A DNA stretch of 60,969 nucleotides, counting the filler, from Sphacelaria rigidula (lineage: Eukaryota): the NCBI GenBank assembly GCA_964200075.2. It is 9 parts of 9 records of this genome, joined end to end, with 100 filler letters (N's around TTAATTAATTAA, not from the genome) between each part and the next. Parts side by side here need not be neighbours in the genome. Positions count along the whole stretch, not along the records: positions 40,715 to 47,399 come from CAXNAA020018639.1; 8 more parts are not named here. One strand, written 5' to 3'. Under the pieces are notes generated by a model that was not told the origin of the DNA, did no database searches, and saw only the letters and a program-made list of their open reading frames with translations. Both the position numbers and the translations under genes were made by a program. Below, piece after piece: positions 6,787 to 60,969 of the stretch (the stretch's first letter is position 1; each line of letters begins with the position of its first letter).

Positions 6787-6952
6787 GATATGCCACTTCA
6801 GCCCCATATTTTGTATGAACCCCAAAATATAAAATCGGCTGTTAATAGGAGGCGCTTCATGCAGCCTGAATCCGAGCATCAGGCGCTGTATGGCCATTTT
6901 TTTCGGGACACTTCTAGCTGGTTTTGGGGGGGGGGCTATCGTAGAAAGTGTC
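6787..6952 (-). mobile_element. Partial GACACTTTCTACGATAG-TIR MITE cut by the contig start
   Basis: Ends in GGGGCTATCGTAGAAAGTGTC. Internal GGCGCTTCATGCAGCCTGAA is shared with the other copies. Confidence 0.8.
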
Positions 6953-7029
6953 CGAATCAAATTTCGAAAATCTTTGAGAAACTAACTTATAAACTACGAA
7001 TTCTACATACTTCTGACGCTGAGTACTGT

Positions 7030-16286: not shown

Positions 16287-16863
16287 ATTATACTCTATAA
16301 CGGGTAGATGGTCTGTGACCACGGAAGGCGTCCCTATCAGATGTCGAGTACAGAGTACTGCGCAGATATCGGAACTGTTTTTTAATATGAAGACAGGAAG
16401 AACAAGAACGGCGATAACAACAACTCTGCACAAATGTACAGATCATTCAAGATATATCCAAAGAAGGACTAAAACACAACAGTGATTACTGTTGTCTCAA
16501 CCCTAGCGGTTGACTTGATTTATCCCATCATAAAAACAGATTGGCATGGGGCGTTTTTTGTTTGCTGCAAATTGGAAGACAATGTAGTGCTACGTGGGTC
16601 TATATATTATTTTTTCTAACCCGGATTGGTAATGTAATTCAACGACGCCTTCCGTCGAAGCTTTTTTTTTTCGAAAGGTGATAAATTACAAGAAAAAAAG
16701 CTGTGTCGCTGACCTTTTTTTGTGACCCGTCTCACCGTAGATGATGATTGAGGTTGGGATCTGTTCCGGGTAGAGTTTGAGGATCTTATCAGCTATTTCA
16801 CGTTTTTTAGTTTTTTCAATATTTTTTTCTGAGAAATCGTTTCGGCCGAAATTGGGTATCTTT

Positions 16864-18985
16864 CACACCCTGGACGATACAATATGTTTCCGATATATAT
16901 TAGTCGATCATATTGGAATTTTGCAATATATTGCCGGTTAAATATATATTGGTACCCGTAGACTGCACATATATTGCGCGCCCAATATAAATTGATGTCG
17001 TGGGACTGCATACATATTGCCCGCCCAATATATATATTGGTACTTTTGGGTTGACACACATTTTCCCATCAATATATATTGGGGCAGCGTGAGCGACAGC
17101 ATATTGCATGACCAATATATATTAGGCTCGCATTGATGAGAACATATTGATTGGTCAATATATATTGGGTCTGCGTGGGTGATGATGTATTGGCCGGTCA
17201 ATATATATATATATATATCTATATTGGATGTTATAAGTATGGTGTATGCTTTAAGAGACATCCAGACGATTGGGAAAAGCTTCGAAGGGATCCGCAGCAG
17301 TTTGCGTGCATTACTACGGAGAGTTGTGAAATGCGTTTGGCATATATTTATCACACCCTGGACAATACAATATATATTTTTAATATATATTAGTCGATCA
17401 TATCGGAATTTTGCGATATATTGCCGGCGTAATATATATTAGTTCCCTTGGACTGCACACGTATTGCGTGCTCAATATATATATTGATGTCTTGGGACTG
17501 CATACATATTGCTCGCTTAATATATATATATATATATTGGTACTGCGGGGTTGAACACATATTGTCCCCATCAATATATGTCGGGGTAGCGCGGGCGACA
17601 GCATATTGCACGACCAATATATATTGGAGTCGCGTTGTTGAGAACATTTTGACCGATCAACATATCCTGGGTCTACGTGGGTGCCAATGTATTGGCCGGT
17701 CAATATATATTGGATGTCACAAGTATGGTTTACGCTTTGAGAAAGATCCAGACGCGATGGGTGCCGGAGAACGTGCAGAATGGGAAAAGCTTCAAAGGGA
17801 GCCGCAGAACTTCGCGTGCATTACTCCGGAAAGTCGTCGAATGCGTTTGATGTACATGCATATGTATACTGGTCAGAAAATATGGTGACAGAAGAGGCGA
17901 CCCGGTATATATGCCTCCTGATACCTATCTGGACACCGGTGCGGGGCCGCCCATTCCTTTTCCAGCATGTAATATGAATATCTTGGCTCAACATCACGAC
18001 GACAGAAAACGCGGGTCGATATGCGCCTTTTGATATCCCTGCGGTCACCAGGGCTGTGTTGCTCATACCCTGGACAACATAATATGTTCCGATATGATAC
18101 CAATACTTTGTATTGGAGCCAGCGCAATTATTGTCCTTACAATATATATTGTGTTGAGATGTCCTCGGAGATATTGAAGCAACAACATATATTGCTCGTG
18201 TCATGATCATGAAGTAATGTATGTCGATATATATATATTGGACATGCATTTGCTCCGAGAATTAAACATTCAATATATATTATGCATGCCGGCCGGGTGT
18301 GTATTGAAGTGTCAATATATATTGAGTCGAGTCGATGCGTAGCATGTTGTTACCATAATATATATTGAACGCAAACCATGCAGAAGTATTGTTTTTCCAA
18401 TATATATTGCGCACGTTGATCGGATAGCTATTGTGCAGTCAATATATATTGAACACCCTTGCGGAGGAATACATTGAGCACTTTCGGCATGCGAAATACG
18501 TCTTTGAATGGCGCCCGCGAACGAAGAACTGTCCACCATACTAATTCCAATACACTTTCCAATATATATGTTGAAAATCAATATATGCTTCTACACCAAC
18601 ATGTATTGTGACCGTCGGTTCCCTCGTGTATTGTCCGCCCAATATATATTGTACGCATTGACGCACGACATATTGGGGCGGCAATATATATTGGCGCTTC
18701 GGGGGTCGAGTATATTGAATCGTCAATATATATTGACCTCGTGTGGCAGCCAATATATTACTCGACAAATATATATTGGTGCCTTGTCGCACCAACATAT
18801 TACTAGGCCGATATGTTTTGAGGTGGCGCGTATCGTGATATATTGTTCGGTCGATATATATTGCATGTTGCGAACCTTGACATATTGATGGCACAATATA
18901 TATTGACCCTCTCTCGTGTCATCATATTGATCGCCCAATATATATTGACCACCCGACGCGTCGATATATTGAGCGGGCAATACAG
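16864..18985. repeat. Phased 42-43-bp array CATATTG-N6-CAATATATATTG-N~17, including a ~488-bp higher-order duplication
   Basis: Core starts at 18640, 18682, 18724, 18767, 18809, 18852, 18894, 18936, 18978 and at 16940, 16983, 17026, 17070, 17113, 17156, 17199. Confidence 0.9.
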
Positions 18986-25550: not shown

Positions 25551-26991
25551 GGTACGAATAACTTGACAATGTTCTGTAGTCTGCTGTCACTCGAGGTCTG
25601 TGCCGCCTGTCTGACGCCTCATCTGTTGCCAGCACAGCTTCACATTGTCCGTAGTGTTGTTGTGGGACACCAAGCAAAGGCATCAGCAGCATGTAGTAAA
25701 AAGTGTTCAGTCGAGAGCGATTGCGCACCTATACCGTCTCTCGCCGTTGTATCCAGCGAAGACATACAACACACATACTGACTGCCCGCACTTGACAGCA
25801 GGGTCGAAACTGGTCAGGGGCTCTCCGGGACTATTTCCTATACAGATGTCAAATATTCACATGCTCATGAAGAAGGCGTTTTGCGTTGCGAGAGAAAAGC
25901 TGATTCGAACCCTAAGTAAGCGTGGCTCAGTTCAACTTAGTCCACCTGCAGGGGGGTCGCTGTTTGAGGGTTGAAGTCATATTTCGGCACCCATACCTGT
26001 AGGAGGTATGCCTTTCGTTGCGGTTTTCGCCCGCAAAATTAATTAACAAAACTCTGTCCTGGTACATTGAAAAATTATCGCATTTATTTTTTGTCTTCAG
26101 AATTTTACTGAGAAGGCGTCTCACCTCGTTCAACTTGATGGTGATGCTCACCAGCTCTGGTGTCGTCCACATCGTCTTGCGTGCGACATAGTGGTGCAAG
26201 GCATTGTCCTGTACTGTAGTCTTTAAATGAGTCATCCATACAATCCCCATTGCATCGTACTGTGTTGGTGCCCACTTCGTCCCGTGTGTGGCGAGAATCG
26301 GTGCTAGGCAATATCTTGTACTGCCTTCAGTCCATAAATTAGTCATGAATCCACTCTGCATTGTGTACTTTTGTCCCCTTCGTCCATGGGTCCACCCCGC
26401 AAAATACCAGACACTAGGTACCCCCCCCCCCTCCGGCGCTCGTAGGAGTTTTCTTTCACATTACGAAACATTTAATAACTAGCACTTTTGGGGCGACGTG
26501 GGTGAGGTACTGTAGCACCTTTGATGGTTGGCCTTACCTGCGACCACAAGATGCGAGGCACAGTGGACGCAAATTGGCGGTGCAAATGGATGCGTTTAGC
26601 TTGATTCAGCAAAGCATTGCAGAGCATTGTGGTGTTTGCCTGGTCTTGTTTTTGTCGTGGAAGTGTGATGTGCATTGTATTGCCGACCCATAAACAAACT
26701 TGGGCTCACTTGGCTTCGAGGATGTCCGAAGAATTAAAGCTTCATTATTAACACAAATTTCAATGAACGAACATCATGCGTCAATGCCAGATATGTACTG
26801 AGCGACAAAGGCACACCGACTTACATCGACATCGACGTCATGTTTGGTAGATCGGCACCTGAATTACCGAGGAGCCAACAGCGACGTGGAACAAAGCTGA
26901 ATACTGTTTCTTTCATGAACTTTTTTTTTTCAACAAATGCAGCTTTACAGCTGCGTTTGTATGGGATTTAGTACCCCCCCCCTCCCTCCCT

Positions 26992-27044
26992 TGCTCCGTC
27001 TCGAAAGGGATGCGTGGTCAATGGTCAAACGACTAAGGCAAGCA
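26992..27044 (+). mobile_element. Mini-copy of the C-tract-associated LINE 3' end, cut by the contig end
   Basis: A C-run followed by TGCTCCGTCTCGAAAGGGATGCGTGGTCAATGGTCAAACGACTAAGGCAAGCA. Confidence 0.85.
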
Positions 27045-30000
27045 NNNNNNNNNNNNNNNNNNNNNNNNNNNNNNNNNNNNNNNNNNNNTTAATTAATTAA
27101 NNNNNNNNNNNNNNNNNNNNNNNNNNNNNNNNNNNNNNNNNNNNCAGAATGCGCACGCGGCGGGATGTGGTCAATCAGGCGGCTGCATGAGTAGCTTTTC
27201 TGAGGGGGGGTGTGAGCTATACCGGATGTTGGCGAAAATACCGTCGGTATACCGGTTTTTGGCGATTGCCCAAAGGTATGTGTCCGGTTGGTCCATGGAT
27301 TACCATATGGATTTATTCAGGAGCGAGTTTCCTCAGGAGAAACAAGAGCACGTTATCGTTCGAGGGGCAATCGAGATTTCAGCCTTCGCCGGAGGCGCCG
27401 TGAGTACGGTTCGTGTCTAACAGTCCTCCAAACCTCGGAGCTGTAGACACCAACCACCTCACTAGCCAAGGATATTCGGCAACTTTGGACCTTTTCCGTG
27501 CTGTCAAGCCAAGCGCGCTTGGTGACGACTCGACAGGAAGGTTGTCTGGTAGGAGCGAACTAACAGCATCGAATGAGATGTGGAAAAGCCCTGGAGTGGC
27601 GTGGGAGGTAGATGCTACGCTGCAGTGGCTGCTGCATCCAACGGAGGACGTAAGCTCAGAAAGTTTCGCTAGCAAGCTTGTCCCGGGCTACGTGCGATCG
27701 ACGCTAGCATGGGCAGCCGCCTGTGTCACGGTTCGAAAGAAGGACGGGTGGTAGTTTACGACCAGATCAAGATTATCGTGGACTGAACCAACTTCTGGAG
27801 TCATGCAGCGGCAGTTTGAGGGATATGCAGACCATGTATAGTGGGCTCGCAGAATCCAAGTACCCTACGAGTGTTGATTTAGCGAATGGATTTTTTCAGT
27901 TGGAGGTGGATGAAGTATTTTGGCAGTCAAAGAGTTCGTGGAAGTGATACGCTGATGCGGACTGGAAGGCGTTGGATTGTGTTGGAGTAAACCAGATTGA
28001 AAAGGGGATCAGGCTGGTACGTACGAGTCCGGGGCGCGGTTCTTTTCACAACCTTGTGGAAGAAGTGCAACCAGAAGTCTTGGTGAGGGATACAAGTCGG
28101 GTTGCACCAATTGAATGGGCCGAGCCGGAGTTTGCATTAACCAGCGTCGCCGCAGAGTTGGCCAAGTCATTCCTCTCGTCAACCTCTGCGACAACGCTGA
28201 TCTTAGAGAGTACTGCTGCGATGGTGCGCTCTCCTGGTGGGAACGAGCTCGTTGCCCCGTGTTGAGCGGAGCTGGGTGTCTCACTGAGCAGGCCTCAGTC
28301 TCAGCCGTGCAAGTGGGCGCACCGTATCGGAAGAGACGGACATATGTGGTCGCCCTGAAAGCTGATCGTCGGAGGGAAGGACAACTGCGAGCGTGGGAGC
28401 AGCGAGTGGAAGCGTACACCGTTGCCTGCCCCACGTTGGGTTGGCTGTTAGGGCGGACAGGTATTTATTTTTCTGGTGCCGACAGGACAGGGCAAGGCGA
28501 TTCACACTTCCAAGAATCCAATACCCAGATTATCTCGTTCTCAGCTGACGAAAGGTAAACCAAAGCGCGAGGAATTCAGACCCCATGGGGCGGACGCAGG
28601 TAGATAGGAAGAAGCAGTCGAACTGAAAGCAGACTAGTTCGTGAGGGTTGCGATTACTCTCGACTGCTACGAGACACCACCCCGGTAAATCACGACCCCA
28701 TGCCATAAATTTTGGCTAATTTCGTCCACCCGTGGATGATGAAGGTGGTTCTATCAAGTGAAAGCGAAAGATTTGTTTAGCCTGACTCATATCCAGGGTG
28801 AGGATGAGGTTTTAAGCAGGCTCGCTACGATGTCACCTCGTGACGAAGTAGAGTTACCAGAGGCTTGGGGAGCCGCTGTAACTCGTTCATCGGTTCAAGA
28901 GGCAGAGCGGAAGTCAGACCAAGACCCTGGTGGGGGGGAGGCCCCAACGGAGGAGCCACGGATACCAGGTAAAGGTATCCCTCAGACCATTCTCGAGCAG
29001 GCGAGAGCGATTCGGATGAGCAAGCCGCGACTAGTTTTGCTGCAAGAGCGGGCCTCCCGGCTTGGGCCCATCAGGGATAGGTTAATGTGCAATAGGAGAA
29101 TAAGGACGAAGGAACAGGTAAGAGGCAGGAAGCATACGTTCCAAAATGATGATGATCTTCTACGGTATACCTCACCTAGGGCGCCAGGTAAGTTAGCTGT
29201 TCCACGCAGTCTAGTGCCTGGCTTGCTCGCGTTGGTGCATACTACGCATGGGCACGCCGGAGTGATGAAAACGACTGTGGCGGTCAACGCACGCTATGAG
29301 TGACCCGGTCTTTTCGCCGATACTCATAAATACGTGCTGTCTTGTGGATGTTTCCGACGCAGACGTACTAATAGTCACACCATCACGATGCGACCCGCCC
29401 GTTTCTTGCAGTTCTGGGAGATGATGTAGATGGACATTGCGGACATGAAGCAAATTTCTACTTCTGGTAATAGGTTCTTGTTGGTTGTTATGGATCGAGC
29501 GATCAATTTCCCTTTGTTCTTCCACTAGCAGCCAAAGTTACTGAGCACGTAGTTAAGGGTCTGCTGAAACTGTTCCTGACGGTCGAAACGCCCTATTTCC
29601 TTTGAAGTGACGCTGGGGGGGGGTTCACTTCGGAAGTAGTAAACCATGCATGTCATATGGATGAAGGTGAAACTAGATCATGGTCCCGCAGATCACCCTC
29701 GCGATCAGGGCGAGGTGGAAAGATACGGAGAGTGGTTGCATGGCGTTTTAACCGAGCTATGTAAGCAGGGGCTGGAATGATGGAACGAGTGTGTGGATCC
29801 TGCTGTATGGATTCATCATACTACTTCCGGCCAGTCACTGCCGCATAACCCAACGCGATTAATGCTGATTTTGAGCGCGAGCCTCCCACCCAAGTCAACT
29901 CTGTGTCACCTGAAGCAGAATCCGTACCGTTCAATAACACGGTAGAGCAACAGCGACAAAATTGAACGACGTTCATGAGCCGTTAACCCAACGCCACCGG

Positions 30001-30619: not shown

Positions 30620-31110
30620 GGTACCAAGATCCTTAAATGGTTTACGGACAGTCCAGAGCGGTCAACATAATCAAGGACTTCTCCGGACGGGATGGGATCG
30701 TTTCTCTACGGTGTTTAAATTCCCTGCGTGGTCTAACCCGGCGGAGCGGTCAACAAGATCAAGAACGTCTCCAGACTGGATGGGATCGTTTCTCTACGGT
30801 GTTCAAATTCCCTGCGTGGTCTAACCTGGCAGAGCGGTCAACAAGATCAAAGACTTCTCCGGACTGGATGGGATCGTTTCTCTACGGTGTTTCAATTCCC
30901 TACGTGGTCTAACCCGGCAGAGCGGTCAAGAAGATCAAGGACTTCTCCGGACTGGATGGGATCGTTTCTCTACGGTGTTTCAATTCCCTACGTGGTCTAA
31001 CCCAGCAGAGAGATCTACAAGAGCGGGAGTTGCCGAGATTGTTCGAGATTGTTCTGCACGGTGTCTAAATTCCCTACGTGGTCTAACTCGGCAGAACGGT
31101 TACCAAGATC
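30620..31110 (+). repeat. 88-bp tandem repeat (~5.5 units) in the Gypsy 3' non-coding region
   Basis: GATGGGATCG at 30691, 30779, 30867 and 30955. Confidence 0.95.
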
Positions 31111-36841: not shown

Positions 36842-36888
36842 CTCTAGAGCCCCTACCCAAGTTGGGAGCTTTGTGGCCGAAGTAAACT

Positions 36889-38181
36889 ATGGCAGACTGG
36901 AGCACCACAGAGGGACACTCGGCTGTCGTGGGAGACACATCATCTCCAACGGAAATGCGGGAGGCCAAGGAAAATGTAGCCAGTTTGCAAAACTCGATGG
37001 CGGATATCACCGAGCAGCTGGCGGAGCTGAAGACGATGATGGTGTCTCAGTTAGTGCGCGGGACATCGTCCACTGGCCCCGGAGCGGCAGCGGACGGGGA
37101 GGGGGAGGCAGGCGACGGGAGACACACCGTCGCCGGTGCCGGAGGGAGGGTCCAGTCACCACGCGGTGTAGGGACTATATCAGGTCCTCTCCGAGGATTC
37201 ACGGGCGATGGATCCGCCCAAGTAAGTATGAACGAGGAGTCCCCAGCTTACTACCCCCGTCTAGGCGTGAAGAATTATTTTCGTGTTGATGAAAAGTTTG
37301 ATGACCAAGAGAGAAATTGGCCGTTGTTTTGTGATGATTTCTTGACACAAGTCAGCGCAGCAGGTTTTATGAGCGCCGTACGAGACACACGAAATATTCA
37401 GGTTCACGATGCGAGTAACGAGGATTTGGTTAATCAGGGATTAGCACCGAAAGAAATACAGATGTACAGACTCTTGTGGGCGGGACTGGTGAGCTCTATA
37501 AAGGATAAGCATGTAAAGCAAACCGTATACTCCTGTAAGGGACCGTCAGTGGCGTGGCGAGCGTTGGAAGAGTATTATGCGCCGTTGACTGGTGGTGAAC
37601 AGATCTTGTTGGTTGGGAAGTTTTTCCATATGACACAGGAAACCGGCCAGGACCCCCGCGAATACTGGCAAGAATATCATAACGTTATTGTGTCACTGGA
37701 AACGGCTCTCGAACAACCGATACCAAAGAAGTTAGTATTCGCGCGTTTTCTGGATGAACTCACAGCTGATTACGACCACCAGAAACAACACCTCCTCTCA
37801 CAGAAAGGCTTGTATGTAGAAGATCTGTTGGCGACGTTGAGAACTAGGTTCGGGATGACAAGAGACAACAAGAGAAAGGATAGCCAAGCCTCGATGTTAG
37901 TTGGAAAGAACAGTGGCAAAGGAAGCCGGGAGAAAAAATTACAAGGGACCTCGGGAAGTACGGGTGATTCAAAAACAGACGGGCGTGAAAATGGTTCTGC
38001 GAAGGAGAGGCGATGTTGGATTCGCCGGAAACAAACAACACACTTCGCGCGTGACTGTCCGGAACGACACTGTATGAGATGCGGAAAAAAGGGACACTCG
38101 TTTCAGGATTGTAATACAGGAGAAGACGAAGATACAGCGATGGCAGTAGGGTCGTCGGGTAGTAGCGATTCTTCAGTATGA
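36889..38181 (+). CDS. gag: Ty1/Copia Gag polyprotein, 430 aa, uninterrupted
   Basis: KFDDQERNWPLF, GPSVAWRALEEYY, RFLDELTADYD (Retrotran_gag_2/UBN2-like). Knuckles CWIRRKQTTHFARDC (degenerate) and CMRCGKKGHSFQDC (CCHC). Confidence 0.9.
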   Translation: MADWSTTEGHSAVVGDTSSPTEMREAKENVASLQNSMADITEQLAELKTMMVSQLVRGTSSTGPGAAADGEGEAGDGRHTVAGAGGRVQSPRGVGTISGPLRGFTGDGSAQVSMNEESPAYYPRLGVKNYFRVDEKFDDQERNWPLFCDDFLTQVSAAGFMSAVRDTRNIQVHDASNEDLVNQGLAPKEIQMYRLLWAGLVSSIKDKHVKQTVYSCKGPSVAWRALEEYYAPLTGGEQILLVGKFFHMTQETGQDPREYWQEYHNVIVSLETALEQPIPKKLVFARFLDELTADYDHQKQHLLSQKGLYVEDLLATLRTRFGMTRDNKRKDSQASMLVGKNSGKGSREKKLQGTSGSTGDSKTDGRENGSAKERRCWIRRKQTTHFARDCPERHCMRCGKKGHSFQDCNTGEDEDTAMAVGSSGSSDSSV

Positions 38182-39989: not shown

Positions 39990-40480
39990 GACACTTTCTA
40001 CGATAGCCCCCCCGTAAACCAGCAAAAAGCGTGACGAAAAAATGGCCAAATAGCGCCTGATATTCGGGTTCAGGCTGCATGAAGCGCCTCATATTGGCGA
40101 TATTGGTCATAATCAACCCAAGCGTGGGAATTCCCAGAGTGATGCTGCGATAGGGTCTGCACTTTTGGGGCCAAAACCGGCCTGATTCAGGGGTTCCTAA
40201 AATTAGAAGCGACATAAGGATATGGGTCAGGATATCCCCGTTTGCAAATTCATTCGGGATATCCCTAGAAAATTGGAAGGAAAACCCTGGCGTACTCTCA
40301 CCTATTTCGAAAGTCGTGTTTTGGATGAGATAAAGGGTTCCTAACAATTCTACTCTCAAGCCGTAAAAGTGCTGACCCTATCGCAGCATCACTCCCCAGC
40401 TTCTTGCGCTCGGCTTTTCCCATTTCGATTTACGTGAAGATTTTTCCTCCCAAAGAGTCATCCTACGATAGGGGGGGGGG
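39990..40480 (+). mobile_element. GACACTTTCTACGATAG-family MITE interrupted by a GAG-TIR MITE
   Basis: Starts GACACTTTCTACGATAGCCCCCCC. Homology to 47127-47355 resumes after 40398. Confidence 0.85.
40137..40394. mobile_element. 258-bp MITE with 30-bp TIRs (1 mismatch) and 4-bp TSD CCCA (subfamily B)
   Basis: CCCA|GAGTGATGCTGCGATAGGGTCTGCACTTTT...AAAAGTGCTGACCCTATCGCAGCATCACTC|CCCA. Confidence 0.95.
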
Positions 40481-41528: not shown

Positions 41529-41782
41529 TGTTAATGGTACGATAGGACTTGCACTTTTCGTTTCTGGGTCTCTTTTTTGCAGGGGCCCAGATCTATGGGG
41601 CTTACTGTGCAACCCAAATGTCCGGGGGCCGGACATGGAGATGTACGCAGGAGCTTCTTCGTGAATCGGCATCATTTTCGGTCTTTTTCAAGTAATGCCG
41701 GCGCAAATGCTCAAACCGATCCGTCCAACACCCCGAGAAACATGTTCGCTGAAAACGGGCAACCCCTACCGTAGCATCACTC
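41529..41782. mobile_element. Subfamily A MITE (copy of 2549-2825)
   Basis: Shared GGCTTACTGTGCAACCCA, GTGAATCG.CATCATTTTC, CCGTCCAACAC and the right TIR CCTACCGTAGCATCACTC. Confidence 0.85.
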
Positions 41783-42067
41783 TTCAACCCTTGCTATATA
41801 TCGCTTACCCTACTATTCGTTCTTAGGGGCATTAAAAGTTCGCTATGAGGAAGTCCATCGTTCTCTCCTCTCCTGGTACTTTTATCCATACTCCCTGGTC
41901 GAATATCGTGTCTTGGATCACTTTCATACTGTCGCACAGGTATTCCTTGACCAAGAATCCTCCCCCCCCCGCTCCTCTGCTCTTCTTGGGGTTGTGCCTC
42001 TCCCGCCTCTTCCCTATCCATGCGTACTCTTCGATTTCGCATTATATTCCCGCATGCTCTTCCTCAT

Positions 42068-42324
42068 GAGCAATGCTACGATAGGAGTGCACGTTTTGCG
42101 CGATTTCTTGTCTGGCTCAGGGGCTCCCAAATATTCTAGATGCACAAGAAAATGGGTCAGGCCACCTCCGTTTGCAAGTTCATTTGGGATGCCCCCTGGC
42201 ACATTGAAATAGTAATCCTGGCATACTCTCATATATTTCATAAATCGTGTTTCGGATGAGATAAAGAGCTCCCAACAATTCTTACTTCAAGAACAAATTC
42301 TGCAACCCCACCGTAACATCCCTC
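42068..42324. mobile_element. Subfamily B MITE (copy of 40137-40394)
   Basis: GAGCAATGCTACGATAGG...CCACCGTAACATCCCTC, with shared ATGGGTCAGG, CCGTTTGCAA and GGATGAGATAAAG. Confidence 0.85.
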
Positions 42325-43359
42325 TCCCCTGACTCCTTGATTCCCACTATATCTAGGTCGCATTCATTCATTTGTTCGGCCATCTCTGTTTTTTTGCGCC
42401 CGTCTGATGCGACTCTACATACGTTCCCTCCGACCCTATTGTCAACTTCCTTTCAGACTCCTCGTCTCCTCTCCGTCTCTCTACTCTTCTCCCTCCGTTG
42501 TTTTCATTTCCATTTTCGTTCGCTCGATATTTTTTCCCGCTCCCGGTTTTGCCGTGTCCATTGATTCGGGCCGCAACGCTCCTTCCCCTTCCCCTTCCCC
42601 TTCCGGGCACTTACTTGGTCTTGCCTGTCTTTCCTCCGTTCACCCGCGGACTACGTCTGAGGTTTGTTGGTCCACTAGCTATGCATAGTCTACATCCTGC
42701 CTTTCTAACCCATACCGACACTTTGCTTGTCTGTGTCCTTTCCCAATTCTTGCTTGCGCTCTGTTTTGGCGTATCTCGGGAGTGTTCTCCCCGCAATTCT
42801 ATTTTTCCTAGTGTCAAACAGTATGGCCCAACTCCATGGCGTATCCATTTATGAACTCTACTCTCGTCATATCGCTACGGACCCCGAATACCCGCACTAC
42901 TAGTTGTTTTCCGGTCCACGCTTCACTCCTCCATCCGCCCTTCCTCACCGCCTCTCTCTCGATCTCTTGTGAGAGTGTCTCCAGCTTAATCATTTCAAGG
43001 GTTGTGGTGCGATGTAATCAACGTACTGGGACACCCCAATCCTCGTACTTGTTGGGGTCTGGTGCCTTTCACATCATCCTTTGCTGGCTCACCGACACGA
43101 AATAGTGCCCCAAACACGGGCTCGTAGCCTGAAGCCAACTTCAACACCTTTGACATTACCCCTCGTCTGTGCCAGGCAATCTTCATGGTAAACCATCCAG
43201 GCGTCCCACGATCATATCTTCTATCTTCTTGCCCCGCTACTGTACTGGTGACCTTCCTCCACGAAGGTTATTTTCACCGTGTAGGGTTCAAGGACGGCTT
43301 GCACAGTACAAGATCTTACTCACACATCGGCATTTCTCGTTCATCTCTTCGTGCAAAAG

Positions 43360-44160
43360 AGACGGTTAGCTTCGGTATTCCATACCCATGTCCGTTAGAG
43401 AAACTAAATTGCTGGCTTCTTTATTTCAGGTCTGTGTCCGCGCTGTGTTGTGGACGGTTGCAAAAAGGAGGACGATTAGTTCCTTCATTCTATCCCCATG
43501 CCTGGGCTGTGCTATGGAAAGGTGAAGAAAAATGTTGTCAGCTTTATTAGCACATGTTTATGTCTGGGCTGTGTTATGGCAGGTTAGAGAAAAATGATGG
43601 TAATCTTCGTTATTTCATGTCTAACTCCGGGCTGTGTTGTGATAGGTAAGAGAAAAAGGATGGTTATAACTTCTTCATTCCGTGTCTGTGTCCGGGCTGT
43701 GTCATGCCAGGGTCGATAAAACGGATGGTCGGCTTCGTTATTTCATGTCCATGTCCGGGCTATGTAATTGTAGGCTGCGGGAGAAGGATGGCTAGCTCCG
43801 TTATTTCATGTCTGTGTCCGGGCTGTGTAAGGGTAGGCTGCGGGGAAAAGATGGCTAGTTTCGTTATTTCATGTCTGTGTCCGTCCGGGCTGTGTTATGG
43901 CAGGTTACAGAAAAAAAGGGTCACTGGCTTCTGTTTTTCATATCTATGTCGGGGTTGTGTTATGCCAGAGTCGAGAAGAGAGGTGGTCAGCTTCGTTGTT
44001 TCATGTCGATGCCCGGCCTGTGTTGTTGTAGGCTGCAAGAAAAGGGTGGTTGACTTCGTTGTTCCATGTCTGTGTCCGGGCTGTGTTATGCCAGGATCCA
44101 GAAAAAAAGAGCTCAGCTGTGTCATTCCATGTCCGTGTCCAGACTGGGTTATGGTAGGTC
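43360..44160. repeat. 63-bp minisatellite (~13 units)
   Basis: The TTTCATGTCTGTGTCCGGGCTGTG motif recurs at 43741, 43804, 43867 and at 43936, 43999, 44062, 44125. Confidence 0.95.
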
Positions 44161-44164
44161 AATC

Positions 44165-46064: not shown

Positions 46065-46240
46065 ACAACCGATCATCAAAATTTAGGATAAAGTTTTTCA
46101 TCGAGGATGATGATCCGGATAATGAAAATACGCATGCCCACACCAATTTCTCGATATGTGGCTCAATTTCTTCACGCTGTTGACAACTATTGCACGCCAT
46201 ACAACTTCGGAGCCAGAGAACAGAAATTTGGGGTTCCGGA
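46065..46240 (+). repeat. Single arm of the foldback family at 50410-50852, truncated at the G-tract/LINE
   Basis: AACAACCGATCATCAAAATTTAGGAT..GAGGATGA..CCGGA..CACGCCATACAA aligns with 50410-50570. Confidence 0.75.
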
Positions 46241-46267
46241 GGGGCGGTGGGGGGGGGGGCGGGGGGG

Positions 46268-47125
46268 CGTACTCATTTGTTGCTTGCCTGAGTCGTTTGA
46301 CCATTGACTGCGTCTTCCTTTCGAGACGGAGCACCGTTCCTACTCCTAATAGAGACACCTTCAACATTCCGGCGCTCATCACGATTCTTCCATACATTAT
46401 ACAAGAACCTCTTACATATCTTATCGCCGTCCTGTTTTGCCATCTCTGGCGACCATCTATCTCCTAGTGTGGCCATCGTTTTGTCCCTACTGTCTAATGC
46501 ATCAAACGATTTCATGCTACATTCGTTCACGTCCCGCATTTCCCCCTCTAGCAAGTCCCGTTCCTCCGCGTATAGTTCCCATTCTGCCACTCTATGACTT
46601 CTGCTCTCTATTCCTTTGCCACAGAGGCACCTTTGTCCATCTACTTCCTCCTCCTTACGACGACTGGTATATCTCTTATTTCTTTCTAGCAGGTCCAGGT
46701 TCCCCACCCGAAATCGCAGTTTCATACTTTTCGCAGCGTCCATTGAGCCATGCAAATATGCTTTCATTCCGATCCCCTCTCTCAACCACCCGTATATCTC
46801 TAGGTGTTCTTCCTCGTCTACCTTGCGCCTGAGCGCTCCAATTCTCCTTGTTTCTATCATATCTCCGACGTTTGCCTTGCACCCCGCGTCTTTCCAGACG
46901 GACCGTATTTCGTCTTGGTTTCCTCCTATCTCCTTCCACATGTTCTCGACTTCTGTATCCCACCTTATAGCGCGCCCTTCCGTACTTTTCTTCCATACAG
47001 CCCTATCAACTATAGCTGACAATCTCTTTCTCTGCATGTTCTTTTCGCTGTATTGCCATCGAAATTCCCTCATCTCTCTGTTTGTTTCAAGTCAGTGCAT
47101 TCCCAACTCTGCTCCCAAAACGGTG
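46268..47125 (-). mobile_element. Non-LTR retrotransposon (LINE) 3' part: ORF2 C-terminus, 266 aa at 46273-47073
   Basis: MKLRFRVGNLDL..RCLCGKGIESRSHRVAEW matches the C-terminal CCHC-type motif of LINE ORF2 proteins (last Cys degenerate). Its 3' end is reiterated as truncated copies elsewhere in the window. Confidence 0.85.
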
Positions 47126-47126
47126 G

Positions 47127-47355
47127 CACTTTTTACGATAGCTCCCCCCAAAAAACCAGTCCAAAAGTGTCACGAAAAATACGGCCATACAGCGTCTGAT
47201 GTTTGGGTTCAGGCTGCATGAAGCGCCTCGTATTGGCAACATTGACGAGAACGAGCCCAAGCGTGGGATTCTCAGCTGCTCGTTGTGCTCGGCTTTTCCC
47301 ATTTCGATTTGCGTGAAGATTTTGTCTCCCAGAACCATGCACTTTTGGGGGGGGG
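47127..47355 (+). mobile_element. GACACTTTCTACGATAG-family MITE abutting the LINE 5' breakpoint
   Basis: GCACTTTTTACGATAGCTCCCCCC...TTCAGGCTGCATGAAGCGCCTC...GGCTTTTCCCATTTCGATTTGCGTGAAG. Confidence 0.85.
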
Positions 47356-47563
47356 GGTGTACTCATGATCATGCTTGCCATATTCGTAAGACCATTGACN
47401 NNNNNNNNNNNNNNNNNNNNNNNNNNNNNNNNNNNNNNNNNNNTTAATTAATTAANNNNNNNNNNNNNNNNNNNNNNNNNNNNNNNNNNNNNNNNNNNNC
47501 AATAATGAGCAGTGCGGCGACGCGCAGAGGCATGCGGTGGGTAGGGGGGGGGGACGGGGGGAG

Positions 47564-47633
47564 GCGTACTCATTCGTTGCTTGCCTTAGTCGTTTGACCA
47601 TTGACCACGCATCCCTTCCGAGACGGAGCACCG
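47564..47633 (-). mobile_element. Mini-copy of the LINE 3' end between G-runs
   Basis: Reverse complement is CGGTGCTCCGTCTCGGAAGGGATG...AATGAGTACG followed by a C-rich tract. Confidence 0.85.
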
Positions 47634-47869
47634 CACCCTACGATGTGGGGGGGGGGGATTTTGGGCCACGTTTTGCACAAAATTCCAGTCAAATCGTCGT
47701 TGAAAGCAGCCACGGTTGCTCGAATGAGTCTGTTATAGATAAGTTACGTGCATTCATACTGATCGACATCGTTCCGAACCAAATTCAGGAGCACCGCGAG
47801 CGTGGCAGGTCGATTGACACACTTATGAGCCTCTTTTATCGTGCAATCAAATACACCCTCCCCGTATCG

Positions 47870-49595
47870 TAGGATGACTCGTAAGTCGGGTGCGTATGTG
47901 ACCTTCTCAAGCTTTACTTTTGCTCTTCCAGCCCTGTCGGGGAAAACTACAGTCAGCGACCCATAACACTCAACGTCGATGAGGGTATTATTACCGACCT
48001 TAACTTCGTCCTCAGATGTTTGCACGTCACGGAGAAATGTAGCTGATTCAGTCATACGAAATGTTACTCCACTATCAGCTATCCACCTTTCGATACCATC
48101 ATAACTGCTACTACGCACTGCCACCGCATCCTTCTTACTTTGTTGCATGTCAATCGATAAACACCCTATGATTTCCCCAGAGCCACTATGTGAAACCTGC
48201 GGGACTGGGATGACGTGTGCGGTAAAGTCGAACCATCGATATCGTGGGTCTAAGCAACGGTAGCACTTGTTCCGTATGTCGTCGTACGTCTTGATTGCGT
48301 TTTTCTTGCTGCTATCTATTCTGGTCGTTCTTGTCCGCTACATTATCACCGGAAAAATCCCCACAACCTTTGGCGCCATCTCGGACACTTTCTACGGTAG
48401 CCCCCTACCATGAAAAAGTGCCTGGTTTGGGGAGGCAGAATCCTCACGTAAATCGAAATGGAAAGCCGAGCAGAACGACCAGCTGAGAATCCCCACGCTT
48501 GGGTTCGTTCTCGCAAATGTCACACATATGAGGCGGTTCATGCAGCCCGAACCCAAATATCGGGTACTGTATGACCATTTTTTTCGTGACACTTTTGGGC
48601 TGGTTCTGGGGGTGACTATCGTAGAAAGTGTCCTTGATTGCGATTTCGGCGGGTGCGCTTACTAGCAACGAGAGCTTGCCCTACGTTACGGCCCTTTGTA
48701 CCATTCCTAGACATGAGCGTGTACCTCTGTCTTACACTAATCTATATCTCTGCTCAGGTTATATTGCCTTTGTACGACATAGTACGCTGTTCGCACTCGT
48801 AGTCGCTTGTGAGTACCTCAACTATCTTAAGGTTCACATCCGCTTCAGGCGCATGTACCCCTAGCGATACTAGTACACCCACAATGTTATCCACGAGCGC
48901 GACGAAGTTCATCGGATCTTCCTTCTTCTCCATCTGCAACTCGTGGAAAAGGCGTTTCGACTTCGATTTTTTCAAGGGGGTTTTCGGGAGGAACCAATTA
49001 CATAAAAAGCGCCAACCTGCACTCGGGCCATTTATGTCAAACACCAAACTTAATAATTCATGGTCTGTGATACTCTCTGTCGGACACGTCCAAGCAATAC
49101 GTGCTCGTCTCATGCTTGTCTCACTAAAACCTTGGTCAACAAAAAACTGTGAGCTAACTGAGGGGTTACCTACGGACATGTCAATAGCTGTAGTAAAAGT
49201 ATGCATGCAATCGTTAGATAAGGCAAAACCCTCGAAGCGTCTTTTCGGTAGAGGAAATCAACACCATTACCTAGCTTGGGGACAGCAGTTTTGATGCTAC
49301 TTATTCCCCCAGGACTTATTGCGAAAGTGCCACTTCCTGCAATCCCAACCTCAACGAGAGCTGGCAGCAGGCTATCGGTGATGTCTCCACCTCTACGACC
49401 GGAAGCAGACATTGCATGCTCCACGCCCGTAGCATCATTGAGATACGATGGTTGATTTCCACTGACGGACCTCTCTATTCGCCCGCCTCTGCTTTCCTGG
49501 GCGGCCTCGACGCGTGGCAGCCTTTCTACGGGAGTCCTTTTCTGCGCCTCGAGCAGCACCCTCAATTCTTCCACCGCATTGTCTTGATCCGCCAT
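47870..49595 (-). mobile_element. gag-pol: Decayed Ty1/Copia gag-protease
   Basis: Gag GPSAGWRFLCNWF..EDPMNFVALVDNIV..LTSDYE, knuckle remnant KCYRCLDPRYRWFD, protease WIADSGVTFRMT..VKVGNN..GSLTV..LEKVTYAPDL. Frameshifts and stops present. Confidence 0.9.
48384..48632. mobile_element. Complete ~250-bp MITE inserted in the Copia gag
   Basis: GACACTTTCTACGGTAG ... CTATCGTAGAAAGTGTC. Confidence 0.92.
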
Positions 49596-53703: not shown

Positions 53704-54034
53704 GACACTATCTACGATAACCCCACCCCCACAACCTGCTCCGTCTCGAAAAGGATATGTGGTCAATGGTTGAACGACTAAGGCAAGCAACAAATGAGTA
53801 CGCCCCCACAACCAGCCCAAACGTGTCACGAAAACAATGGACATACAGCGCCTGATGTTTGGGCTCAGGCTGCATGAAATGCCTCATATGTGCGATATTG
53901 GCGGTAAAGCACCCAAGCATGAAAATTTCCAGATGCTCACTGTGCTCGGCTTTTCCCACTTCGATTTACGTGGAGATTTTCTATCCCCAAACCAGGCACT
54001 TTGGGGGGGGTGGGGGGCTATCACAGAAGGTGTC
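53704..54034. mobile_element. GACAC-TIR MITE carrying a nested LINE mini-copy
   Basis: GACACTATCTACGATAACCCC ... GGGGCTATCACAGAAGGTGTC. Confidence 0.85.
53737..53802 (+). mobile_element. 66-bp LINE 3'-end insertion with 11-bp TSD CCCCCACAACC
   Basis: TSD at 53726-53736 and 53803-53813. The insert ends AAATGAGTACG with no poly(A). Confidence 0.92.
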
Positions 54035-57300: not shown

Positions 57301-60300
57301 ATTCACTCGACTGGTTCAAGTGTCGCTGGTCTGAATTTGACCACTTCGGACCATGTAACACCCACCCAGGTCGAACGCGTTCATTCCTCGCGTTCATTGC
57401 ACCATGCAAAGCTACCCCTGAATGGTTCTCACATAAACCATCCTACTATACCTTCGGCAATGACCCCTCAGCCAAGCTTACCAGCAGACAGCCCAAAAGC
57501 TTCGCCCGAGCATGCCCCGATGCTGACACGATCCACTCAACTGGACGCAGTTGGGCTTTCCCCAAACACTTCGGAAGTTCCCCGCCTTTTGTCACGGCAA
57601 GAGAGGAAGCCCCGTGAACATGCCTCCACTAAAAGCGCGCATCAACACGTACACCTCCCTCGAGTGGAGAATCTCGACCTCACTCTCGCCACAGTGCGAC
57701 GAATTTGCGCCCGAGTAATCTATTAAGTGTCCCAGAAGAATCCAAATCAGATCTTTCGGATATTTCTACCTCTTTTGCGAAGTACACTGAACAGCATGGA
57801 TATATTTTAGACATTGATCCCTGCCTTCCCAACACCGTCATATATGAAATTGCTATTAACCAGCCGAGCTGTGCTCACTCTGGGGATCACACATCATCCA
57901 CCAAACTTTCTGGTGAGAAAGTTGACCCCCCGGCGGATCACCCGCCGGCCGTTTTCGCCGTCAGCACGACTGATTCCGATCAATTTACCTTGGCTGAACA
58001 TGGTCCGGATCTTATCAGCGGTAAAGTGTCTGTTGATCCTGCCACTTTTACTACTCGCATAGCGCTCCATTGTGAGCCATACGCAACCACGCCTGCCGAA
58101 TGTGTCTCTTTGTTAGATAGCTGCAGGCCACAAATGTTTATTTGTGAATCAATGTGGGAACATATGGAACAGATTGGCGCTGCTTCATCAGCTTGCGAAA
58201 TCACCACTCAACCTCGAGTATGGGGCGGTTTTGACTCCACCGCATCTTTGACCACACGAATATCAGTTCGTCTCAGTGTGCAATTCTTCCACAACACAAC
58301 TCGTTCTGCCAGCCTTGCAGTCTGGGCATACGTTGTCCCCGACAGCACCATGGCTCACGCCTTACTCATGGGCCAAGATAGTTACATGCGGTTTGATCAA
58401 CGCACCTACCGCACGCTACCACCCTTATCGCCACCGTCTGCGCCTCGTGGAGAACTCAACCTTGAACATTTCGGTACCCTTCACGGCGCCTTGGCCTACC
58501 AAAAAAATGGTCAGGCTACCGGAGCTGCTTACCACCTACGGTACGATGGTAGTGCTGGTGTTACCCTCTCCGATGATCCTCAACTGCTGGAAGTTGCCCG
58601 CGTTCGCCGAAATGGTATGCCTGCCCTTACGGGACATTACGTTGCCGAAATGCTCCCTCGGGTTGGTGCACCTGCCGGCACAGAGCACTTTGTCTCTGCA
58701 GGGAAACAAGTTTTACCCCTCTCGGGTCATGCTAACTTGGAGCCCGGTGATGTTTTGGGTATCGCTGCTGCTCCTTTTATGCACATTCCACTTGAGACAT
58801 GAGCCCCTGAACCCTCGACGCCCATTTCGGCGTCTCCGACAGACTGTTCTGTCAATTGCGTCGATGAGCCACGTATCCACACCGTGAACCCTGCACCGTC
58901 AACGTCCGACCCTCCTGCTAAAGTGCTCCCACGCCCATCACCAGAATCTCGGAAAAGTTGCTTGCACATGCGGAATCAACTTCCATCCCATTTACGCGAC
59001 ATCACTTTTGACCTACATGGACCCGGTTGGGAACCCGCTGTAATCAAATAATTGAGCAATGTTTTATTGGAGTACCAAGACCGATTTTCTCGATCCAAAA
59101 CGGATCTGGTTCATTGCAAAACGCTATCCTTTGAAATCACACTTTAACCTGGCGTTTCGCCAATATCTTCTCGACCGTATCGGACGAACCCCATCCTTAC
59201 CAAAAACGTTAATGCCATTTTAGACGCGTACTTCGGTGGCGGATTAATCCAACACTCCTCTTCTTCATGGGCCTCACCCCTAGTGGTAGTCCCTAAAAAG
59301 ATGGAGACATACGCATCACCGTGAATTATTAACAGATAAATCGCGTTACTGTGGTGGGGAAACTTCGCATTCCTCGCATAGATGAAATCTTCGACTCTCT
59401 AGGCGGCGGCAAAAATTTCAGTACCTTCGATCTCGCTTCTGGGTTTTTCCAGAATGCCATCCACCCTGACACAGTCCGATTGACAGCGTTCTGTACATCT
59501 TCTGGGCTCTACGAATGGCTCCGTACGCCACAAGGTGCCGCCACTGCACCAGGTTGTTTCCGACGTTTAATGCAGCGCGTTACAGAGAATCTCGAACATG
59601 TCATCATGTACTTCGACGACGCTATCGCATTCGATGCCTCCCCTCTTGCGCATGTGCGCACCTTACGAGAGTTTCTTTCTCCACCGCGGAAGCACGATTT
59701 GAAACTGTCTCCATCCAAAGCTCGTCTTGGCGCACTTTCACCGGCGGGTCTACAACCGGAAACCAAAAAGTCAGGGCAATGACTGACTTGCCGATGCCCA
59801 AGAACATTACTCAGCTCCGCTCATTATTGGGTGGACTGTCCTACTATCGCAAATTTCTGCCTAAGCTATCCAAACGGATTCACCCCATTACGGACTTGCT
59901 TACAAAAGGCGCCGCGCTTGTCTTCACCAAAGACATGGAAGCTATCCTTCGCGACTTGCTGAAAACGCTAACGGCAAAACCGGTCCTTTGTTTCCCAGAT
60001 TGGGATGCCGTACAAAACGGTTCTCGCCTCTTTCAACTACAAACAGACGCCAGCACCGACGGGTTCGGCGCGGTCCTGAATCAGCCTCAACTCAATGGCT
60101 CTATTCGATCCATCCTCTATATCAGTCGCGCCATCCTGCCCAACGAGGCCAACTGGAGTCCCCTGGAGCTGGAAGGCGGATCATCACTTGGGCCAGACAG
60201 CACTTTTGACAATATTTGTTCCATGTGCCTTTCCAAATCTACACGGATCACGGAGCACTTGAACAGCTCGCCAAAGCTGGTGAACATAATCCGCGTGTGC

Positions 60301-60750
60301 AACGCTGGTTGGAGTTCCTGACAGCTTGTCAGTATACTGTCAAACATCGCCCTGGCAAAAACAATGGGAATGCTGATCTTCTCTCCCGCCTGCCCCTTCC
60401 TCCCACGGCTGCAGATTTCACCCCAGCTCATCGGCTAGCTGAACCCGATGAACCAGGCGTGTACCCTATCCGGCCTTTAACAACGCCCATCTACGCCCTT
60501 GACCTTCATTGCCCAGAGACGGGTATGCACATGGGCGGCCCTCGCCCCCTACCGTATAATGCACCTTTGGATGGGCTAAAACCCACAGACGCCGATTTCG
60601 CGATTTCCGTACTATCGGTCCTCGCGCAAATATTTCAGTTTCGCCACCTCCAGTTGCCCACCTCATTTCCGACAGTACGCGCTCTCGGTCTGCCGCCCGC
60701 GCCAACTCTCTCCGCGTCCCGCCGCCACCGACAACACCTACTGAGAGAGG
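54345..60750 (+). mobile_element. gag-pol: Decayed Ty3/Gypsy retrotransposon: gag, protease, RT, RNase H (truncated before integrase)
   Basis: Gag FADYLREFKLLV and knuckle CINSNTQGHSMRGC (~56605). Protease SLLDSC..LLMGQD (57705-58802). RT WASPLVVVPKK, IPRIDEIFDSL, FDLASGFFQ, TAFCT, YFDD. RNase H LQTDASTDGFGAVL, YTDHGAL, RVQRWLEFL, HRPGKNNGNADLLSR. Confidence 0.96.
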
Positions 60751-60969
60751 ATTCTATAAAATGAGGTTCATTAATGAAATGAGGTTCGAGCCCAAAACAG
60801 TACTTTCTTCACACTTTCAGCGATGGTGCCCAATGACGTTTTAGTCTGCCTAATGGTCCTTGATCGTGTAGATACTCTTTCAGCGCATTTTACCGACTCT
60901 GTGAGCTTACAGCGCTGCCCGAAACTGCTTTTTTCCCTGATATCACCCCCCCCCCTAGAAAAAAGTAAA

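Follow-up and report, generated by a model that had tools for sequence, protein, structure and literature searches.

A brown-algal LINE inserted at C/G runs, probably the Sphacelaria counterpart of Ectocarpus RTE-X elements

Elements of the L1 clade have a poly(A) tail, a T-rich target and a separate ORF1, and mammalian L1 is nicked into place at TTTT/AA. The closest described relatives of the elements considered here are the RTE-X LINEs of Ectocarpus, for which the supplement of the curators' annotation gives 'single EN-RT ORF; (C)n 3'', a 'C-rich' TSD and a length of 5,867 bp for RTEX-1a_Ec32, '(C)n termini/TSD' for RTEX-2_Ec32, and thousands of copies and a span of 5.5–5.9 kb for RTEX-1/2_Ec32 (PMC12477816). 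The same annotation contains RTEX-N1, which is non-autonomous, has its 3' 60 bp in common with the LINE and bears a head weakly like the 5' end of RTEX-2, as well as the Ectocarpus RTEs (RTE-1/2_Ec32), which are 4.0–4.6 kb long and have (CAA)n 3' ends; the term 'C-rich' has no match in its main text, and a mechanism, a truncation hot spot and a 3' RNA fold are absent from the sections examined (PMC12477816). Mean lengths are given elsewhere as 4.9 kb for RTE-X and 3.6 kb for RTE-BovB (PMC10294476), and Chlamys Penelope-like elements are recorded as inserting at (C)n repeats (PMC8557442). In RTE-clade LINEs and SINEs the first TSD base agrees with the repeated base of the tail, and LINE and SINE 3' ends are held in common (PMC6007223); tail–target pairing, described in section 18 of that source for RTE elements too, is established for other LINEs. 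A mechanistic study of a C-tailed LINE was not found in a literature search whose scope lay outside Repbase, Dfam and most subscription journals.

The window, a stretch of 60,969 nucleotides from Sphacelaria rigidula, consists of nine contigs with linkers between them, and the assembly searched is a eukaryotic one of 244 Mb (GCA_964200075.2). The main LINE copy of the window (46268..47118, minus strand) is 851 nt long, 5'-truncated and decayed, with 88.9 per cent identity to the family pile-up and the same end as loci L001–L030; no TSD is evident in its flanks. It contains the C-terminal 272 aa of a single EN-RT ORF (46276..47091, minus strand), including a CCHC-type knuckle in which the last Cys is replaced here by Trp. 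As had been described, this frame (47091-46276, minus strand) runs without stops over its 272 aa to a C-terminus of ...QASNK and is followed by TGA (46275-46273) and a 5-nt 3' UTR, GTACG (46272-46268), stop and UTR together occupying 46268..46275 on the minus strand; then comes an interrupted C tract (46240..46267, minus strand) that may be tail, target or both. The last 67 nt of the copy (46268..46334, minus strand) make up a terminal module that is predicted to form a closed three-way junction; copies of the family begin most often at its 5' edge.

The preliminary description had counted five copies on four contigs, which agrees with the placing of the linkers, and had stated that all five touch a C-run. 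A 66-nt copy (53737..53802, plus strand) interrupts a C-run belonging to a dispersed host repeat, and the exact 11-bp TSD reported for it, CCCCCACAACC, is present on both sides (53726..53736 on the left and 53803..53813 on the right, plus strand). A 69-nt copy (47565..47633, minus strand) is followed by a C-rich tract at 47544-47564, with C11 further 5', and has no evident TSD, and the 3' end of a copy that is cut by a contig start (54285..54326, plus strand) is followed by C12 (54327-54338). The short copy at 26992..27044 (plus strand) runs off the contig at 27044, which leaves its 3' end unseen and its C-run (26974-26991) at the 5' side only. Overlooked in that description was the 3' end of a second, non-coding family (47358..47399, minus strand), which has the terminal module in common with the LINE and is followed by C11 (47347-47357). 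Contig ends cut off two of the five copies in the window; many matches to the terminal 20-mer and 21-mer of the two families fall within ~100 nt of contig ends in the assembly, and these repeats therefore break it.

A separate, decayed 5' fragment of the same LINE (41780..44162, minus strand) spans 5' UTR, the N-terminus of the ORF and the start of the APE domain, and its 5' UTR holds a 63-bp tandem array of 8.7 copies (43553-44106, minus strand). The dispersed host repeat is non-coding, carries its C-run internally and occurs in the window at 47127-47346, 48384-48632, 53803-54034, 39990-40138 and 6844-6953; as it hosts the insertion at 53737 and apparently also those at L134 and L146, it is a recurrent landing site. 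A tandem array of 88-bp period (30654-31110) and a direct duplication of ~490 bp (16857-17849) are unrelated to the LINE. Decayed frames at 36886-38178 (plus), 47747-49257 (minus), 28743-29300 (plus) and 59470-60761 (plus) are, by eye, presumably LTR-retrotransposon-like (gag, protease, integrase, RT/RNase H).

Walking 5' from terminal copies yielded an element of ~6 kb, with the 63-bp tandem array in its 5' UTR and one ORF composed of a ~160-aa N-terminal extension, APE, RT and a CCHC-type knuckle; none of the copies examined is intact. The pile-up is collinear with P0066 (single ORF, 1,376 aa) from the N-terminus of the latter and is 77.5 per cent identical to it, 66.5 per cent to Ectocarpus CAB1110456.1 and 54.4 per cent to CAB1109165.1, and a C-terminal TKASNK is shared by two relatives. 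Protein matches include Sphacelaria and Ectocarpus, and the Ectocarpus proteins, 54–67 per cent identical to the pile-up, belong to strain CCAP 1310/34, not Ec32. The 272-aa frame of the window is 61 per cent identical to residues 1088-1360 of the intact homologue P0001 and 36 per cent to Ectocarpus CAB1103133.1, and a Pfam scan of it returned no family. A protein labelled as coming from a bacterial metagenome-assembled genome (P0103) has 61 per cent identity to the LINE C-terminus and is probably algal DNA in the bin, and no relatives of P0049 were found in viral and metagenome contigs.

RVT_1 matched a genomic frame (L051) at E 3.8e-12, and the best PDB match for the RT was L1 ORF2p (E 3e-21). 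The decayed genomic APE frame fell below the Pfam cut-off (E 9.5e-5) and had no match in a PDB search. The pile-up carries WNV, QESW, YMP, GDFN, LDYI and TDH, which we take to be APE motifs, and all four intact homologues (1,328–1,376 aa) place both RVT_1 and Exo_endo_phos above the cut-off and lack a GIY-YIG Pfam match; the endonuclease, for which APE and REL had both been considered, is therefore of the APE type. A fixed 3' end, 5' truncation and TSDs of variable length are present, and by its sequence the family is an APE-type non-LTR retrotransposon (LINE) with a single ORF.

The likeness to RTEX-1/2_Ec32 extends to the single EN-RT ORF, the (C)n 3' end, the C-rich TSD and a similar length (~6 kb here, tandem array included), whereas the Sphacelaria family differs in belonging to another brown alga and in having older copies (~83 per cent identical pairwise). 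We infer that the Sphacelaria LINE is the counterpart of RTEX-1/2_Ec32, a match drawn from the architecture, from the ends, from homology to proteins of a different Ectocarpus strain and from elimination, and the RTE-X label would be carried over from Ectocarpus curation, the quick protein tree having been built with references that bear no clade labels. Accepting this, the family can no longer be called undescribed, as it had been, given that the supplement assigns '(C)n 3'' and a 'C-rich' TSD to RTEX-1 and RTEX-2_Ec32 (PMC12477816); it was for the most part already catalogued, and Chlamys Penelope-like elements target (C)n as well (PMC8557442). The C-tail/C-target habit is recorded for Ectocarpus RTE-X in a supplementary table note, and thus the habit itself is not new.

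Three other placements were rejected. The RTE clade of the RTE-1/2_Ec32 type is excluded by 3' ends that are not (CAA)n (AAAA in 0 of 75 sampled copies, C in 85–91 per cent at positions +2 to +6) and by a length of ~6 kb rather than 4.0–4.6 kb, the L1 clade by the lack of poly(A), of a T-rich target and of a separate ORF1, and membership of the Chlamys Penelope-like elements by an APE in place of GIY-YIG. Those elements resemble the LINE in targeting (C)n (PMC8557442), but their GIY-YIG endonuclease and PLE RT indicate no kinship to it. RTE-clade LINEs and SINEs agree with it in the identity of the first TSD base and the repeated tail base and in their common LINE/SINE 3' ends, but their tails are T- or A-based microsatellites (PMC6007223). 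Mammalian L1 is alike in its APE-RT-CCHC layout, in a homopolymer tail that matches a homopolymer target and in its variable TSD, and unlike in that the Sphacelaria LINE uses C/G rather than A/T and has one ORF, a 5-nt 3' UTR and a conserved, putatively structured 3' module.

The C/G-run insertion pattern holds genome-wide. The terminal 20-mer of the family has 4,150 matches in the genome (reversed control, 0), and CCCC lies 0–6 nt from the end in 1,857 of 2,099 forward matches versus a background of 2.4 per cent, a statistic from which the reverse-strand count, being multiply counted, was left out. Seventy-five copies were then sampled from the first listed contigs, flanks not being a selection criterion; CCCC stands at the 3' junction in 65 and GGGG in none, and G is the last element position in 81 per cent. 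The frequency of CCCC is far above chance, and the preliminary description was right that insertion is strand-specific at C/G runs, with TSDs starting with C and without poly(A). Thirteen of the 75 had short or N-containing flanks and were dropped, leaving 62 evaluable copies, among which a TSD was found at a score of at least 14 in 14 (mean of 0.16 in shuffled pairs) and at a score of at least 12 in 19 (shuffled mean 1.2, maximum 5). On the 5' side, 47 of the 62 have CCCC no more than 25 nt from the junction, versus 6.7 per cent of background, full-length copies have their 5' ends behind C-rich flanks, and all three metagenome copies end in GTACG and a C-run. TTAGGG, presumably telomere-like, stands between TSD and element at the 5' junctions of two of the 62 copies (L089 and L091), where it may be 5' end-repair filler or chance.

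A homopolymer that serves as both tail and target obscures the boundary between them, and poly(A) gives the same ambiguity at L1 sites. In 20 of the 62 copies the TSD is fixed by a non-C anchor (shuffled mean 2.4, maximum 8). The 3' Cs of 12 of these anchored insertions are no more numerous than those of the target, one has an intermediate count, and seven, one of them with a weak anchor, have more than two extra Cs; as these seven exceed what the target could give, non-target Cs were added at insertion. The 3' Cs are therefore part target and part added at insertion, and the term 'tail-less' that had been applied to the element does not survive. Slippage after insertion was rejected as the source of the extra Cs, since runs of three rarely expand to 11–14. 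No empty-site joint at L133 was present among the joints listed for contigs from four runs, contigs being unable to show absence.

It might still be argued that 'tail-less' is right for the RNA, which would end near GUACGC(C), and that the extra Cs come from stutter of the RT or from re-priming on the G-run. The 12 insertions with no surplus are consistent with this, as are L089, where GCC alone follows the element, and L118, which has no 3' Cs, and interruptions are frequent in the extra tracts (L104, L107), which repeated priming would be expected to produce. Yet targets of CCC alone came to be followed by C7, C11 and C14 (L115, L131 and L133), and C-runs always come after source copies, so that read-through transcripts would carry Cs. 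The Ectocarpus curators, moreover, modelled a (C)n end (PMC12477816), and an RNA without a true tail is on balance unlikely.

Removal of the three weak anchors left 17 insertions whose empty sites were rebuilt. A G4 motif is found in four of the 17, against a background of 0.4 per cent, and three consist of an isolated CCC; G4 motifs are accordingly enriched at target sites yet not required, and long C-runs alone produce the enrichment. The suggestion that the element is specific for G-quadruplexes draws on those four sites, but with 13 of 17 lacking the motif, the three isolated CCCs among them, it is very improbable.

Taken together, the family is probably a ~6-kb brown-algal APE-RT-CCHC LINE, the counterpart of RTEX-1/2_Ec32, that follows an L1-like scheme with C in place of A. 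The ORF protein would bind the folded ~67-nt module at the 3' end of the RNA, which overlaps the last codons of its own ORF, and the endonuclease, to judge from the TSDs, would nick the G-strand within a G-run or next to one. The RNA may then pair with the freed Gs through a short C tail and so prime reverse transcription. The second nick is staggered and produces a TSD made up of the C-run and 5–16 unique bases, an outcome seen in the copies with a TSD, which by criterion number just 14–20 of the 62. Most copies stop at the 5' edge of the module, a pattern that could reflect either trimming or stalling. Since a C-run remains at every copy, existing copies serve as targets for subsequent insertions, and seven of the 62 sit behind another family 3' end.

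Specificity could in principle reside in the tail, if an endonuclease without preference for G made nicks and annealing of the C tail to any nick that exposes Gs alone selected the site. Base pairing of tail and target has been proposed to select RTE sites (PMC6007223), and as little as CCC serves as a target here. Two insertions (L089 and L118) lie on the margin of a C tract or slightly beyond it and would have allowed little or no C:G pairing at the junction, which hints at recognition by protein, if from two cases, and CCCC is nearby in the 47 targets already mentioned; a choice of site by annealing alone is accordingly rather doubtful.

The short copies define a sharp class, 37 of the 62 being 59–69 nt long, with starts that peak at -67 and -66 (BLAST ends are fuzzy by ~2 nt). 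Genome-wide, 2,540 copies extend to -65, of which only 528 have a match at -73..-69 as well, a figure that exact matching undercounts. In the predicted fold, GUGCUC (-67..-62) pairs with the terminal GAGUAC and encloses two hairpins, with a pair probability of 0.99 in the family-1 consensus. A collinear comparison of the modules of family 1 and family 2 (8 and 9 copies) found a difference at one of the 42 paired positions and at 13 of the 25 unpaired ones (p 2e-6), and all 21 pairs still form in the family-2 module. For the family-2 consensus, where another fold is preferred, the closing stem reaches a probability of 0.24, and the 5' ends of many family-2 copies fall within the module. The z-scores for folding, between +1.2 and -2.3, are weak, and double-sided compensatory changes were not seen in the module. 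Rfam returned a single chance match (E 0.3) on five loci, hence no known ribozyme or tRNA family, and neither the length class nor the structured end was found in the literature searched.

The 59–69-nt copies might be a separate minimal non-autonomous element with source copies of its own rather than truncations. T at -28 occurs in 15 of 50 short and 1 of 60 long sampled copies, and genome-wide 97 of 824 T copies reach -73 versus 431 of 1,716 C copies (p 1e-15), hinting at a short sub-lineage. However, both alleles are present in both classes, most short copies bear the allele of the long ones, no further diagnostic site was found in the sampled copies and no promoter is evident within the 67 nt. 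A separate element is thus improbable, and truncation at the module edge is the likelier account.

The second family, identified by a related 21-mer with 3,249 exact matches in the genome, one of them in the window (47358-47399), was compared at 25 loci, where it is ~74–85 per cent like the last 39–72 nt of the LINE and ends in C-runs, often with TSDs; no protein match was found at these loci beyond nested LINE ends. A whole copy (L023) is ~0.5 kb long and has a head resembling the LINE 5' end. By description, RTEX-N1/N2_Ec32 are similar, being non-coding, ~0.5–0.6 kb long and endowed with a 60–70-nt 3' end shared with a LINE, a weakly LINE-like head and a C-rich TSD (PMC12477816). The second family probably uses the machinery of the LINE. 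A ~97-nt internal repeat at L164 and L170 duplicates part of the terminal module, and a hammerhead reading was rejected, as some copies only have the CTGATGA core. Head-to-tail nests also occur, in which a copy, in some cases full-length, lies within the C tail left by an older copy of either family (L013, L016, L017, L020, L022, L024, L025, L028, L067 and L075).

As a natural exchange of A for C in the L1 scheme, the Sphacelaria LINE makes it testable whether endonuclease or tail–target pairing underlies the target choice of LINEs. The structured 67-nt end predicted here is a modest new lead. A bolder and quite unlikely model would have these last 67 nt form a closed tRNA-like domain (a 6-bp terminal stem, one unpaired base, CC...) that is trimmed or cut at the 5' edge of its stem and C-tailed, so that a ~70-nt RNA from inside the ORF is the main mobile unit, inserted by an APE that reads G-runs; were it true, no portable signal that directs TPRT to G-runs would be smaller than this ~70-nt unit. 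The sharp 66–67-nt length class and the predicted fold point in any case to a compact recognition signal, which may be of use in the annotation of brown-algal genomes and in TPRT-based insertion work.
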